Shown here one piece after another: positions 1 through 4,500 of a DNA stretch of 4,500 nucleotides (positions within the stretch are counted from its first letter, which is position 1; every line of letters starts with the position of its first letter). The stretch lies in the IMG/VR virus record IMGVR_UViG_2681813263_000013; one strand, given 5' to 3'. The notes beneath the pieces were generated by a model. The model was not told where the DNA came from and did not search any database. It saw only the letters and a program-made list of their open reading frames with translations. This stretch comes from a virus. Its lineage: Duplodnaviria > Heunggongvirae > Uroviricota > Caudoviricetes. The position numbers and the translations under genes are program-made.

Positions 1-1
1 G

Positions 2-655
2 GAAAGATATTTCCCCTGCGTGAATATCTCCGGTGAGCCGGAGGCGTATTTCCGTATGTCGCCGGAAGACTGGCTGCAGGCAGAGATGCAGGGTGAGATT
101 GTGGCACTGGTCCACAGCCACCCCGGTGGTCTGCCCTGGCTGAGTGAGGCCGACCGGCGGCTGCAGGTGCAGAGTGATTTGCCGTGGTGGCTGGTCTGCC
201 GGGGGGCGATTCACAAGTTCCGCTGTGTGCCACATCTTACCGGGCGGCGCTTTGAGCACGGGGTGACGGACTGTTACACGCTGTTCCGGGATGCTTACCA
301 TCTGGCGGGGATTGAGATGCCGGATTTTCATCGTGAGGATGACTGGTGGCGTCACGGTCAGAATCTCTATCTGGATAATCTGGAGGCCACAGGGCTGTAT
401 CAGGTGCCGTTGTCAGCGGCGCAGCCGGGCGATGTGCTGCTGTGCTGTTTTGGTTCATCGGTGCCGAATCATGCCGCCATTTACTGCGGTGACGGCGGGC
501 TGCTGCACCATATTCCTGAACAACTGAGCAAACGAGAGAGGTACACCGACAAATGGCAGCGACGCACACACTCCCTCTGGCGTCACCGGGCATGGCACGC
601 ATCTGCCTTTACGGGGATTTGCAACGATTTGGCCGCCGCATCGACCTTCGTGTGA
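2..655 (+). CDS. K: Tail tip assembly protein K (JAB/MPN metalloprotease-like plus NlpC/P60 cysteine-peptidase-like domains); 5' end probably truncated by the window edge
   Basis: Frame is open from the first in-frame codon (2) to TGA at 653..655. Translation carries a JAMM motif H-x-H-x7-S-x2-D (HSHPGGLPWLSEAD; His codons 113..115 and 119..121, Ser 143..145, Asp 152..154). It also has an NlpC/P60-type Cys (DCYTLF, codon 272..274) and His (NHAAIY, codon 470..472). Sequence matches lambda gpK as I recall it. ATG at 56 corresponds to the classical 199-aa lambda start; the ORF track uses GTG at 20. Spacing to I and J reproduces lambda exactly. Confidence 0.93.
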   Translation, partial: ERYFPCVNISGEPEAYFRMSPEDWLQAEMQGEIVALVHSHPGGLPWLSEADRRLQVQSDLPWWLVCRGAIHKFRCVPHLTGRRFEHGVTDCYTLFRDAYHLAGIEMPDFHREDDWWRHGQNLYLDNLEATGLYQVPLSAAQPGDVLLCCFGSSVPNHAAIYCGDGGLLHHIPEQLSKRERYTDKWQRRTHSLWRHRAWHASAFTGICNDLAAASTFV

Positions 656-1224
656 AAACGGGTGCCGAAGCCATCCGGGCGATGGCCACACAGCTCCCTG
701 CGTTTCGTCAGAAGCTGAGCGACGGCTGGTATCAGGTGCGTATTGCCGGGCAGGATGTTAGCACGTCCGGATTAACGGCGCAGTTACATGAGGCTCTGCC
801 TGACGGCGCTGTGATTCATATTGTTCCCAGAGTCGCCGGGGCCAAGTCAGGTGGTGTATTCCAGATTGTCCTGGGAGCAGCCGCCATTGCCGGATCATTC
901 TTTACCGCCGGAGCCACCCTTGCAGCATGGGGGGCTGCCATTGGTGCCGGTGGTATGACCGGCATTCTGTTTTCTCTCGGTGCCAGTATGGTGCTCGGCG
1001 GTGTGGCTCAGATGCTGGCACCGAAAGCCAGAACTCCCCGCACACAGACAACGGATAACGGTAAGCAGAACACCTATTTCTCCTCACTGGATAACATGGT
1101 TGCCCAGGGCAATGTTATGCCTGTTCTGTATGGTGAAATGCGCGTGGGGTCACGTGTGGTATCTCAGGAGATCAGCACGGCAGACGAAGGGGACGGTGGT
1201 CAGGTTGTGGTGATTGGTCGCTGA
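553..1224 (+). CDS. I: Tail tip assembly protein I (ubiquitin-like N-terminal region, Gly/Ala-rich hydrophobic central segment)
   Basis: ATG at 553 with GAGG about 10 nt upstream; 223 codons; stop TGA 1222..1224. Starts 103 nt inside K in a different frame, as in lambda. Translation MAATHTLPLASPGMARICLYGDLQRFGRRIDLRVKTGAEAIRA... matches lambda gpI from memory. Confidence 0.93.
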   Translation: MAATHTLPLASPGMARICLYGDLQRFGRRIDLRVKTGAEAIRAMATQLPAFRQKLSDGWYQVRIAGQDVSTSGLTAQLHEALPDGAVIHIVPRVAGAKSGGVFQIVLGAAAIAGSFFTAGATLAAWGAAIGAGGMTGILFSLGASMVLGGVAQMLAPKARTPRTQTTDNGKQNTYFSSLDNMVAQGNVMPVLYGEMRVGSRVVSQEISTADEGDGGQVVVIGR

Positions 1225-1242
1225 TGCAAAATGTTTTATGTG

Positions 1243-1270
1243 AAACCGCCTGCGGGCGGTTTTGTCGTTT
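1243..1270 (+). terminator. Putative stem-loop in the I-J spacer (8-bp stem aaaccgcc / ggcggttt, 4-nt loop tgcg) followed by a T-rich tract tgtcgttt
   Basis: Read directly: 1243..1250 is the reverse complement of 1255..1262, followed by a T-rich run to 1270. It lies between the I stop (1224) and the J start (1285). Function as a terminator is unproven. Confidence 0.2.
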
Positions 1271-1284
1271 ATGGAGCATGACGA

Positions 1285-1298
1285 ATGGGTAAAGGCAG
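1285..1298 (+). other. J: Start of host-specificity gene J (first 14 nt, atgggtaaaggcag, encoding M-G-K-G), interrupted at 1298/1299
   Basis: ATG at 1285 lies 61 nt after the I stop, as in lambda, with GGAG at 1273..1276. The remainder of the J 5' end (S-S-K-G-H-T-P-R-E-A-K-D-N-L-K-S-T-Q-L-L-S-V-I-D-A-I-S-E) is found on the minus strand at 1878..1796, so the gene is broken here by an inversion. Confidence 0.7.
1289..1298. repeat. Left arm of a perfect 10-bp inverted repeat (gtaaaggcag) at the inversion breakpoint
   Basis: gtaaaggcag at 1289..1298 is the exact reverse complement of ctgcctttac at 1879..1888. Both adjoining bases differ, so the repeat is exactly 10 bp. Confidence 0.85.
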
Positions 1299-1794
1299 AT
1301 GCGCGCCATGCCCGGTGACGCCAGAGGGAGTGTGTGCGTCGCTGCCATTTGTCGGTGTACCTCTCTCGTTTGCTCAGTTGTTCAGGAATATGGTGCAGCA
1401 GCCCGCCGTCACCGCAGTAAATGGCGGCATGATTCGGCACCGATGAACCAAAACAGCACAGCAGCACATCGCCCGGCTGTGCCTCTGTCAGTGCGACACG
1501 GTAAAAACCCGTCACCTCCATATTGTCAAGATAGAGATTCTGACCGTTACGCCACCAGTCATCCCCGCGATGAAAATCCGGCATCTCAATCCCTGCCAGA
1601 TGATAAGCATCCCGGAACAGCGTGTAACAGTCCGTCACCCCGTGCTCAAAGCGCCGCCCGGTGAGATGCGGCACACAGCGGAACTTGTGAATCGCCCCCC
1701 GGCAGACCAGCCACCACGGCAAATCACTCTGCACCTGCAGCCGCCGGTCAGCCTCACTCAGCCAGGGCAGACCACCGGGATGACTGTGGACCAG
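1299..1794 (-). pseudogene. K: Inverted, 5'-truncated second copy of K (K'), diverged from copy 1 (about 93% amino-acid identity by eye); its 3' end overlaps the first 50 nt of a second I gene (minus strand 1348..1299)
   Basis: The reverse complement of 1299..1794 aligns colinearly with + strand 107..602, with scattered and clustered substitutions. The minus-strand translation reproduces K from LVHSHPGG through the NlpC/P60 Cys and His to RHRAW. The ORF-track minus ORF 1150..1734 is this copy reading through into unrelated sequence. The minus strand 1348..1299 encodes MAATHTLPLASPGMAR, the start of I'. Confidence 0.8.
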
Positions 1795-1795
1795 N

Positions 1796-1878
1796 CTTCG
1801 CTGATGGCATCGATCACACTCAGCAGCTGCGTGGACTTCAGGTTGTCCTTCGCTTCGCGCGGGGTATGCCCCTTACTG
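1796..1878 (-). pseudogene. J: Inverted fragment of the J 5' end (J nt 15..97, codons 5..32), joined to K' at an ambiguous base
   Basis: Reverse complement of 1796..1878 reads agc agt aag ggg cat acc ccg cgc gaa gcg aag gac aac ctg aag tcc acg cag ctg ctg agt gtg atc gat gcc atc agc gaa g, which is S-S-K-G-H-T-P-R-E-A-K-D-N-L-K-S-T-Q-L-L-S-V-I-D-A-I-S-E and continues the MGKG at 1285..1298. Position 1795 is n. Confidence 0.8.
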
Positions 1879-1888
1879 CTGCCTTTAC
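1879..1888. repeat. Right arm of the 10-bp inverted repeat (ctgcctttac)
   Basis: Exact reverse complement of 1289..1298. It lies within codons 17..20 of the second I allele. Confidence 0.85.
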
Positions 1889-2232
1889 GGGGATTTACAA
1901 CGATTTGGTCGCCGCATCGACCTTCGTGTGAAAACGGGGGCTGAAGCCATCCGGGCACTGGCCACACAGCTCCCGGCGTTTCGTCAGAAACTGAGTGACG
2001 GCTGGTATCAGGTGCGCATTGCCGGGCGTGATGCAGGTGAAACCGAATTGTCTGCCCGTCTTAATGAGCCGCTGGCAAATGGTGCAGTGATCCACATAGT
2101 ACCGCGTCTGGTGGGAGCTAAAAGTGGCGGTGTGTTTCAGGCGGTGCTGGGGGCGGCTGTTATGGCGGTTGCTATATGGATGCCGGGGGTAGGAATTATG
2201 GCGAGTAATCTGCTGTTTTCTCTCGGTGCCAG
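1879..2232 (+). CDS. I: Second, diverged allele of tail assembly protein I (I'), partial: codons about 18..135 on the + strand, first 17 codons displaced onto the minus strand (1348..1299), 3' end lost in the N gap
   Basis: In frame with I numbering, the translation reads (I)CLYGDLQRFGRRIDLRVKTGAEAIRALATQLPAFRQKLSDGWYQVRIAGRDAGETELSARLNEPLANGAVIHIVPRLVGAKSGGVFQAVLGAAVMAVAIWMPGVGIMASNLLFSLGA. The first roughly 150 nt are nearly identical to copy 1 (603..750); the centre is strongly diverged. The ORF track starts this at GTG 1928 and runs it through the N gap as X residues. Confidence 0.8.
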
Positions 2233-2913: not shown

Positions 2914-3047
2914 GTGCTGGGTACGGAAGTGAAATATGACACGCCGATCACCCGGACCATCACGTCGGCAAACATTGACCGACTGCGTTTTACCTTCGGT
3001 GTACAGGCACTGGTGGAAACCACCTCAAAGGGAGACAGGAATCCGTC
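2914..3047 (+). CDS. J: Host specificity protein J, internal fragment on a separate contig end (about residues 90..133 in lambda J numbering)
   Basis: Frame 1 translation VLGTEVKYDTPITRTITSANIDRLRFTFGVQALVETTSKGDRNP matches lambda J from memory. Bounded by N runs on both sides. Confidence 0.85.
2965..3047. repeat. 83-nt direct repeat copy A (partner 3198..3280, 8 mismatches, about 90% identity) flanking the second gap
   Basis: Both copies encode SANIDRL-R-(F or L)-TFGVQALVETTSKGDRNP, the same segment of J. This points to overlapping contig ends from two J alleles rather than a real tandem repeat. Confidence 0.8.
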
Positions 3048-3197
3048 NNNNNNNNNNNNNNNNNNNNNNNNNNNNNNNNNNNNNNNNNNNNNNNNNNNNN
3101 NNNNNNNNNNNNNNNNNNNNNNNNNNNNNNNNNNNNNNNNNNNNNNNNNNNNNNNNNNNNNNNNNNNNNNNNNNNNNNNNNNNNNNNNNNNNNNNNN
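3048..3197. other. Assembly gap (150 N), probably spurious (negative gap)
   Basis: The flanks are near-identical copies of the same J segment, so the true sequence is probably continuous without an insertion. Confidence 0.85.
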
Positions 3198-4500
3198 TCG
3201 GCAAACATCGACCGTCTGCGCCTGACCTTCGGTGTGCAGGCACTGGTGGAAACCACCTCAAAGGGTGACCGGAATCCGTCGGAAGTCCGCCTGCTGGTTC
3301 AGATACAGCGTAACGGTGGCTGGGTGACGGAAAAAGACATCACCATTAAGGGCAAAACCACTTCGCAGTATCTGGCCTCGGTGGTGGTGGGTAACCTGCC
3401 GCCGCGCCCGTTTAATATCCGGATGCGCAGGATGACACCGGACAGCACCACAGACCAGCTGCAGAACAAAACGCTCTGGTCGTCATACACCGAAATCATC
3501 GATGTGAAACAGTGCTACCCGAACACGGCACTGGTCGGCGTACAGGTGGATTCGGAGCAGTTCGGCAGCCAGCAGGTGAGCCGTAATTATCATCTTCGCG
3601 GGCGCATTCTGCAGGTGCCGTCGAACTATAACCCGCAGACGCGGCAATACAGCGGTATCTGGGACGGAACGTTAAAACCGGCATACAGCAACAACATGGC
3701 CTGGTGTCTGTGGGATATGCTGACCCATCCGCGCTATGGCATGGGGAAACGTCTTGGTGCGGCAGATGTGGATAAATGGGCGCTGTATGTCATCGGCCAG
3801 TACTGTGACCAGTCGGTGCCGGACGGCTTTGGCAGCACGGAGCCGCGCATCACCTGTAATGCCTGGCTGACCACACAGCGCAAGGCGTGGGATGTGCTCA
3901 GTGATTTCTGCTCGGCGATGCGCTGTATGCCGGTATGGAACGGGCAGACGCTGACGTTCGTGCAGGACCGACAGTCGGATAAGGTGTGGGCCTATAACCG
4001 CAGTAATGTGGTGATGCCGGATGATGGCGCGCCGTTCCGCTACAGTTTCAGCGCCCTGAAAGACCGCCATAATGCCGTTGAGGTGAACTGGATTGACCCG
4101 GATAACGGCTGGGAGACGGCGACAGAGCTTGTGGAGGATACGCAGGCCATTGTCCGTTACGGTCGTAACGTCACGAAGATGGATGCCTTTGGCTGTACCA
4201 GCCGGGGGCAGGCACACCGCGCCGGGCTGTGGCTGATTAAAACGGAACTGCTGGAGACGCAGACCGTGGATTTCAGCGTGGGTGCTGAAGGGCTTCGTCA
4301 TGTACCGGGCGATGTCATTGAAATCTGCGATGATGACTATGCCGGTATCCGCACCGGCGGGCGCGTGCTGGCGGTGAACAGCCAGACCCGGACGCTGACG
4401 CTCGACCGTGAAATCACGCTGCCATCCTCCGGCACCACGCTGATAAGCCTGGTTGACGGGCAGGGGAATCCGGTCAGCGTGGAGGTCCAGTCCGTCACCG
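3198..4500 (+). CDS. J: Host specificity protein J (tail tip central fibre protein), internal portion; 5' end in gap, 3' end beyond the window
   Basis: Frame 3 is open for about 434 codons from 3198 to the window end, which is why it is absent from the ORF track (no stop in window). Translation SANIDRLRLTFGVQALVETTSKGDRNPSEVRLLVQIQRNGGWVTEKDITIKGKTTSQYLASVVVGNLPPRPFNIRMRRMTPDSTTDQLQNKTLWSSYTEIIDVKQCYPNTALVGVQVDSEQFGSQQVSRNYHLRGRILQVPSNYNPQTRQYSGIWDG... matches lambda J from memory with a few substitutions. Confidence 0.95.

Follow-up and report, generated by a model that had tools for sequence, protein, structure and literature searches.

An Inverted Block in the Tail-Tip Genes of a Shigella sonnei Prophage Scaffold: A Highly Probable Assembly Artifact Resembling a Microhomology-Mediated Inversion

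Gene Content and Source of the Locus

The DNA analyzed here, a window of 4,500 nt, carries tail-tip genes of the lambda type, and both their domains and their order, K-I-J, are those of this gene set. Pfam assigns NLPC_P60 and JAB domains to K, Lambda_tail_I to I, and FNIII-A_GpJ together with Phage-tail_3 to J, and the DNA is 96-99% identical to lambda, 434 and prophages of E. coli and Shigella. The window was mapped onto a colinear natural prophage to give coordinates within K and J. Two reference prophages are referred to below: the colinear copy, in a complete S. sonnei chromosome (L005), of a prophage designated P1 here, and the colinear prophage of E. coli FDAARGOS_944 (L009), which serves as the reference for a second allele, copy B.

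The first part of the window (1-1298) runs on the plus strand from K90 to J14. Gene K of copy A, encoding the tail-tip NlpC/P60 peptidase, occupies positions 1-655 of the plus strand and is called at 56-655 in the source record; of the 744 nt annotated as K, the window includes those from nt 90 onward. It is followed on the same strand by gene I of copy A (553-1224, called at 652-1224), which codes for the tail assembly protein and carries the Lambda_tail_I match. Gene J begins at 1285 on the plus strand with its nt 1-14 (ATGGGTAAAGGCAG, 1285-1298), where its frame stops. The sequence then continues in the opposite orientation: positions 1289-1794 correspond, on the minus strand, to K701 to K196, and 1299-1794 hold an inverted copy B, comprising K' from nt 196 to its end and the overlapping I' nt 1-50. 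A single N at 1795 marks the point where J nt 97 is unnaturally joined to K' nt 196. Beyond it, positions 1796-1888 read from J97 to J5 on the minus strand, and the inverted J nt 15-97 within this part (1796-1878) are 100% identical to P1 in L005. The plus strand is resumed at 1879-2232, which maps from K692 into I'; I' of copy B, from its nt 61, lies at 1889-2232 (plus strand) and is truncated by a gap of 681 N (2233-2913). Gene J reappears on the plus strand as nt 265-398 (2914-3047), in the P1 allele and 100% identical to L005, and, after a gap of 150 N (3048-3197) whose flanks overlap in J coordinates, as nt 316-1618 (3198-4500, plus strand).

An exact-protein look-up identified the window, in its entirety, as the 4,500-bp WGS record CXDG01000260.1 of assembly GCA_001252135.1. 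This record originates from a Shigella sonnei draft genome, and the chimeric open reading frame (ORF) described below is likewise annotated as Shigella sonnei. Its three runs of N comprise 1 (1795), 681 (2233-2913) and 150 (3048-3197) positions. The two long runs identify the record as a scaffold, in which contigs are joined via N gaps. The single N at 1795 is presumably a scaffold join as well, at which the gap estimate had shrunk to its minimum, a habit that we attribute to Velvet, SSPACE or GapFiller; a search for published documentation of SSPACE or GapFiller leaving one N for an unclosable gap found none. The N at 1795, the scaffold status evident from the long N runs and a duplication of J nt 316-398 in two alleles had been overlooked in an earlier, sequence-only reading of this DNA.

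The Inverted Block and Its Arms

That reading had described a block of 580 bp bounded by a perfect 10-bp inverted repeat, and this description is accurate: 1299-1878 is flanked by GTAAAGGCAG at 1289-1298 (left arm, junction A) and CTGCCTTTAC at 1879-1888 (right arm, junction B). The left arm represents J nt 5-14 and, read on the opposite strand, I' nt 51-60; for the right arm, the two roles are exchanged. The 10-mer is thus common to J codons 2-5 and I codons 17-20, as had been proposed. The homology at the arms is exactly 10 nt, as the flanking bases differ on either side. In gene I of copy A, the natural CTGCCTTTAC is located at 603-612.

The remaining J 5' end was likewise correctly placed on the minus strand: the reverse complement of 1796-1878 equals J nt 15-97 and, when joined to 1285-1298, reads MGKGSSKGHTPREAKDNLKSTQLLSVIDAISE, an intact J N-terminus. 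Similarly, the start of I' (nt 1-50) lies on the minus strand at 1348..1299, and its continuation is found on the plus strand from 1879. In the orientation of the window, both J and I' are therefore broken. A chimeric ORF of 194 aa spans junction A on the minus strand (1150-1734); the corresponding protein, CSQ77247.1, forms a singleton cluster from one contig.

The two K copies were expected to be about 95% identical and in opposite orientation, and alignment of 1289-1794 with 107-612 confirmed this with 94% identity over 506 nt, ungapped and with 676 nt between the arms. It had also been argued that such inverted copies would be unstable if real. Enterobacteria tolerate inverted repeats about 680 bp apart, and the argument is weak.

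A further proposal was that flipping 1299-1878 would restore the continuity of both the J 5' end and I'. Both indeed become continuous, but the join J97-N-K'196 persists. This adjacency is present in no natural K-I-J genome, and undoing the inversion consequently does not restore the natural colinear order. Given the N at 1795 within this join, the flipped arrangement is unnatural as well.

How much can be read from the 10-bp repeat itself depends on the question asked. Shuffles of the natural K-I-J segment of 1.84 kb contained a mean of 1.6 perfect 10-nt inverted pairs, and 79% of them had at least one. The occurrence of such a repeat is therefore commonplace, and the view that the microhomology is shared by chance was borne out; that the repeat falls at both breakpoints is not chance. 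Between J1-97 and the segment from K196 to the end of I, no inverted match other than GTAAAGGCAG/CTGCCTTTAC reaches a length of 10 nt.

An inverted block bounded by inverted repeats within tail genes recalls, at a superficial level only, the programmed invertible segments of the Gin/Cin/Pin/Hin type that serve tail or host-range genes. The arms of such a segment would here consist of 10 bp that are ordinary coding sequence and coincide by chance, and the 4.5-kb record contains no recombinase, with K, I and J being accompanied solely by antisense ORFs that lack a Pfam match. Moreover, the genes are destroyed in either orientation, no alternative tail-fibre 3' ends are exchanged, and none of the phage and E. 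coli genomes searched has the arrangement. A programmed switch can be dismissed with near certainty.

The arms fit a private, real rearrangement, in which illegitimate recombination or a template switch during replication would have acted on the 10-bp inverted repeats. The breakpoints coincide with a perfect short inverted repeat, the junctions form a reciprocal pair, and no base was lost or gained; furthermore, inversions are known to arise from template switching at such short repeats (PMC8604942, PMC4689423). Three geometries can be envisaged: (a) the inversion of the 580-bp block, as originally proposed, (b) a 676-bp inversion within one prophage, extending from I' nt 61 to J nt 4, and (c) a large inversion of the chromosome with its ends in J of one prophage and in I' of another. 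All three yield the same two junction sequences. Geometries (b) and (c) escape the problem of the unnatural join only if the N at 1795 is an unrelated scaffold join of two junction contigs. The underlying pair of inverted repeats, 676 bp apart, is a fixed feature of every lambda-type K-I-J. Against a real event stand the scaffold N inside the block and the presence, in the same record, of blended alleles and of another non-colinear join, both of which are described in the following section.

Alleles of Two Prophages in One Record

Comparison with the two reference prophages revealed that the record combines pieces of at least two prophage copies. Copy A is P1, a prophage conserved in S. sonnei; positions 1-1298 of the window share 99.5% identity with the colinear K-I-J of L005. 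Copy B is 100% identical to L009 over 1879-2232 and 98.8% identical over the inverted K'. Examples of colinear reference sequences are CP104423.1:1299817-1312389 for P1 and NZ_CP065613.1:4374689-4383538 for the second prophage (P2). When the I' protein was used to look for the locus of copy B in a complete S. sonnei genome, the best long-contig matches were rejected; L007 (91.7-93.5% identity) and L008 (93.7% in the K' part) each carry a different allele.

The two alleles are not cleanly separated, and the record passes from one allele to another several times. All three mismatches of the copy-A K to P1 (487, 498 and 544) are copy-B bases, and the three intergenic mismatches to P1 (1246, 1252 and 1264) belong to a non-P1 allele. 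The blended copy-A K protein was found in this contig only, among 153 billion gene positions. The exact 190-aa protein of the copy-A I, in turn, occurs in at least 1,000 contigs, among them complete chromosomes of S. sonnei in which K-I-J is colinear. Allele blending of K is the expected product of gap filling from a mixed read pool. The intergenic bases, situated just left of junction A, can also be counted in favor of a real rearrangement, since junction A could then lie inside a single prophage copy.

A comparable mixture is observed in J. The J sequence downstream of the 150-N gap begins with a second allele for its first ~240 nt (about 3198-3440) and then merges into P1; mismatches to L005 are concentrated at 3209-3287, and beyond 3632 the sequence is identical to P1. 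J nt 316-398 are present twice, in two alleles that differ at 8 of 83 nt and flank the 150-N gap. As these nucleotides occur on both flanks, the true distance across the gap is negative. The record is accordingly non-colinear at two or more separate places, J97-N-K'196 and the J316-398 duplication, and thus contains more than one join that is foreign to its natural relatives and is located at or beside a scaffold gap, as is characteristic of a misassembly.

The presence of a second allele also bears on explanations at the level of single molecules. A snap-back hairpin within one molecule was considered as the sole cause and rejected, because the inverted K belongs to another allele than the forward K (42 mismatches in 651 nt). 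A read-level chimera would more generally arise during library preparation or amplification, when the polymerase switches templates or is primed by a fold-back at the 10-nt complementarity. Inverted chimeras are the main artifact of multiple displacement amplification (MDA), with more than 85% of chimeras being inverted and formed at a complementarity of 2-21 nt (PMC1855051), and the geometry at this locus is compatible with a molecule in which J nt 5-14 and I nt 51-60 folded back and primed on each other. Such chimeras are, however, normally single, non-reciprocal, accompanied by a deletion and individually rare, whereas a reciprocal pair with nothing deleted is observed here. Both junctions would also need to have survived the coverage filters of Velvet, and there is no sign that the DNA of this cultured isolate was amplified. 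The N join, the duplicated J stretch and the blending of alleles would, in addition, be left unexplained. A read-level origin is therefore regarded as quite improbable.

Searches for the Junctions in Other Genomes

Independent support for a real inversion was sought in other genomes. Queries of 88 nt, centered on junction A or junction B, were compared with 5,426 complete E. coli genomes, a set that does not include S. sonnei. In these genomes, about 11,500 half-matches to junction A and about 13,700 to junction B were obtained, and none of them extended across the 10-mer. Every match to an 88-nt query ends at the 10-mer, and none reached a query coverage of 80%. All of these natural half-copies carry the same repeat pair, so that the absence of the junctions among them argues against a real rearrangement. 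Exact 28-mers across both junctions gave zero matches in species-representative genomes, IMG/VR and JGI metagenomes, again collections without S. sonnei, and the arrangement was absent from the 50,697 phage genomes searched. A locus of E. coli IH5 (H1) was considered as an independent occurrence and rejected, as it has another structure and other junctions.

The flipped-back sequences, by comparison, are ordinary. An uninterrupted counterpart of the restored K'-I' exists in 3,239 genomes (best match 99.3%, as a single piece), and one of the restored I-J 5' end in 4,212.

At the protein level, the search extends to S. sonnei. The peptide across junction A had no other carrier among 5.8 billion protein clusters, which include the Logan re-assemblies; this result was discounted, since the record's own protein was missed too. 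Two short ORFs across the junctions gave no exact match, and such ORFs are unlikely to be called as genes in any case. Taken together, the protein-level evidence, which does cover S. sonnei, argues weakly against an occurrence of the junctions elsewhere. The singleton status of the chimeric ORF likewise stands against a real rearrangement, considering that S. sonnei is clonal and heavily sequenced. Independent support was thus not obtained: no junction match was found in the collections searched, and the chimeric ORF is a singleton.

Assembly Pipeline and Origin of the Inverted Block

In the available excerpt of the table in PMC5320598, WGS prefixes below and above CXDG (CWZL-CXAC and CXFB-CXGC) denote S. 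sonnei assemblies of 370-450 contigs. Judging only from these bracketing prefixes in the excerpt, this assembly was very probably made by the Sanger pipeline of Velvet, SSPACE and GapFiller. In this pipeline, Velvet assembly is followed by 16 rounds of SSPACE, down to five linking read pairs, and 120 iterations of GapFiller 1.11 (PMC5320598). In early 2016, around 30% of bacterial GenBank assemblies were its output, and its authors state that SSPACE and GapFiller, as greedy tools, are capable of false joins and report 4-10 misassemblies per genome (PMC5320598). This rate is far above that of private inversions mediated by 10 bp and is a further point against a real rearrangement.

In GapFiller, both edges of a gap are first cut back by 10 nt, and the sequence is then extended from either side one base at a time; a gap is closed if the extensions overlap by at least n nucleotides, with n set to 10 by default, and if the resulting size lies within 50 nt of the estimate (PMC3446322). 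In GapFiller's own benchmark, misjoins, including inversions, increased after closure from 12 to 18, from 4 to 7 and from 23 to 31, and another group set n to 18. The overlap at both junctions of the record is exactly 10 nt, which equals the GapFiller minimum, with the use of GapFiller being deduced from the neighboring prefixes in the table excerpt. This agreement in length was initially taken as strong evidence for GapFiller, an argument that was withdrawn because the 10-mer is the sole inverted match of at least 10 nt. As the only match available, it would be used by a real event too, and the length of 10 nt does not discriminate between the two. Conversely, if a sub-block were mis-oriented and a single 10-mer available, both closures would fall there and look reciprocal.

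We therefore consider it highly probable that the inverted block is an assembly-level artifact of scaffolding and gap filling and not a chromosomal inversion, and we are more confident still that it is an artifact of one kind or another. The sequence-only reading had offered a choice between an inversion and a chimeric read or contig, while leaning toward an artifact. This leaning is supported by the nature of the record as a mixed-prophage scaffold with other non-colinear joins, by junctions that are found nowhere else and by flipped-back sequences that are ordinary contiguous alleles. The amplification chimera that it had named as an example is less likely, and the block more probably originated from scaffolding and gap closing.

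The following course of events may be envisaged. The isolate would harbor two or more lambda-like prophages, P1, which is conserved in S. sonnei, and P2, whose allele would be nearly identical to that of E. coli FDAARGOS_944. With K-I-J regions that are 92-94% identical and exact shared runs of tens of bases, a de Bruijn assembly of short reads would fragment the region into small pieces, some of them allele-specific and others shared. The scaffolder might then build a single 4.5-kb record from pieces of P1 and P2, in which gap filling would blend the two alleles. At the scaffolding step, a sub-block consisting of K'196 to I', a 1-N gap and J5-97 could have been set in the wrong orientation. 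The two flanking gaps would subsequently be closed on the sole sequence shared by the mis-oriented neighbors, GTAAAGGCAG/CTGCCTTTAC, and the outcome would imitate a reciprocal inversion at a microhomology.

Within this model, chances are slightly better than even that the 10-nt closing rule was the step behind both joins. A suffix-to-prefix closing rule demands that both extension fronts stand at the 10-mer simultaneously, and a reconstruction of contig ends that would bring both fronts there together was not achieved. A clean reciprocal junction pair at a microhomology is equally expected from a real inversion. Nevertheless, a private real rearrangement is judged to be unlikely, and the same low probability is assigned to its recA-independent form, an inversion via the 10-bp microhomology in or between lambdoid prophages, such as the 676-bp flip from I to the start of J.

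Implications for Public Sequence Data

The block itself is of minor biological importance, and its value lies in a warning on public data. High-throughput short-read drafts may hold misjoins that resemble clean, microhomology-mediated inversions, and chimeric proteins such as CSQ77247.1 or the blended K are then taken up into protein databases, where they stand as unique entries. Any screen of prophage regions for structural variants or novel proteins should therefore distrust junctions that lie beside scaffold Ns on an overlap of about 10 nt. Were the inversion true, it would represent a modest natural example of an illegitimate inversion at short inverted repeats in a defective prophage.

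Comparison With Known Systems

The invertible tail-fibre segments of Mu (G/Gin), phage P1 (C/Cin) and e14 (P/Pin) share with this locus an inverted block inside phage tail genes. In contrast to these systems, the record contains no recombinase, no crossover sites of a known type and no alternative gene ends, and K, I and J are not among the genes that they switch.

Inverted chimeras of MDA and library preparation resemble the record in their inverted junction, a complementarity of about 10 nt and a distance of a few hundred bases (Lasken and Stockwell, 2007; PMC1855051). They are, however, single junctions that come with deletions, whereas a reciprocal pair is present here in DNA that shows no sign of amplification. 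Inversions between short inverted repeats, generated by template switching or illegitimate recombination, are closer in form, as they too exhibit a perfect repeat at both breakpoints, reciprocal junctions and no loss of bases. The record differs from them in that undoing the inversion leaves an unnatural order, a scaffold N is located in the block and no independent occurrence was found.

Misjoins of Velvet, SSPACE and GapFiller in drafts with repeated prophages show the same N-gap scaffold with pieces of two paralogous prophages in tandem, a 1-N join at an unnatural adjacency, joins on an overlap of 10 nt, which would be the tool's minimum, and junctions unique to the record. The present record departs from this class in mimicking a reciprocal inversion at a microhomology so cleanly, an unusually tidy result for a misjoin.

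Chimeric and Blended Gene Products

Across junction A, the left 10-bp arm of the inverted block, the record carries an annotated 194-aa "tail assembly protein" (CSQ77247.1; 1150-1734, minus strand), in which the C-terminal part of K', the second-prophage copy of the tail-tip gene K, is joined to antisense intergenic sequence. The cluster of CSQ77247.1 is a singleton, and the entry is therefore an artefactual database protein. A less conspicuous case is K of copy A (56-655), the copy assigned to the Shigella sonnei prophage P1 allele. It differs from P1 only at positions 487, 498 and 544, and at all three it carries the base of copy B, the second prophage. No second contig in an index of 153 billion genes was found to carry the 199-aa protein encoded by this copy. 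Despite its normal appearance, copy-A K is probably an in silico blend of alleles that has now entered the protein databases. The gene call for a 209-aa ORF antisense to J (3672-4301, minus strand) is probably spurious; a Pfam match was not found for it.

With regard to protein searches, a 75-aa query taken from an ORF of the record itself failed to recover that ORF in the word-indexed search, even though its cluster has this very ORF as representative. As a known positive was missed, negatives of this search with short queries are not dependable.

Duplicated J Sequence and the I-J Intergenic Region

Nucleotides 316-398 of J are found twice in the window, at 2965-3047 and 3198-3280, on either side of a 150-N gap. 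Comparison of these flanks revealed 8 mismatches in 83 nt, and the two copies represent different alleles. The scaffold has set paralogous J copies in tandem, and the real distance between the flanks of the gap is negative.

The spacer between I and J contains, at 1243-1268, a GC-rich hairpin with a trailing T run (AAACCGCCTGCGGGCGGTTTTGTCG) that resembles a terminator. A terminator is among the features annotated under the matching K-I-J region in a phage 434 record. In the window, this hairpin exhibits a non-P1 allele at three positions.

The Inverted 10-mer Pair in Natural K-I-J Regions

In all four natural colinear K-I-J references inspected (L003, L005, L007 and L009), CTGCCTTTAC at I nt 51-60 forms an inverted pair with GTAAAGGCAG at J nt 5-14, and in copy A of the window its members lie at 603-612 and 1289-1298, about 676 bp apart. 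Junction half-queries containing the 10-mer matched more than 4,000 complete genomes. None of the complete genomes searched showed an inversion between the two 10-mers.

A Quasi-Palindrome in E. coli IH5

A quasi-palindrome of about 6 kb, arranged J-I-K|K-I-J, is located in E. coli IH5 (L001 4191-10292; NZ_CP168269.1:4804026-4810127), a genome labelled complete. Its arms abut without a spacer and consist of two different alleles with 88-96% complementarity. Both J genes are cut short: a tRNA-Ala gene lies directly against one of them, and a 5S rRNA gene borders the other. This arrangement could represent either a misassembly or a real rearrangement between prophages; its junctions are unrelated to those of the inverted block in the window.
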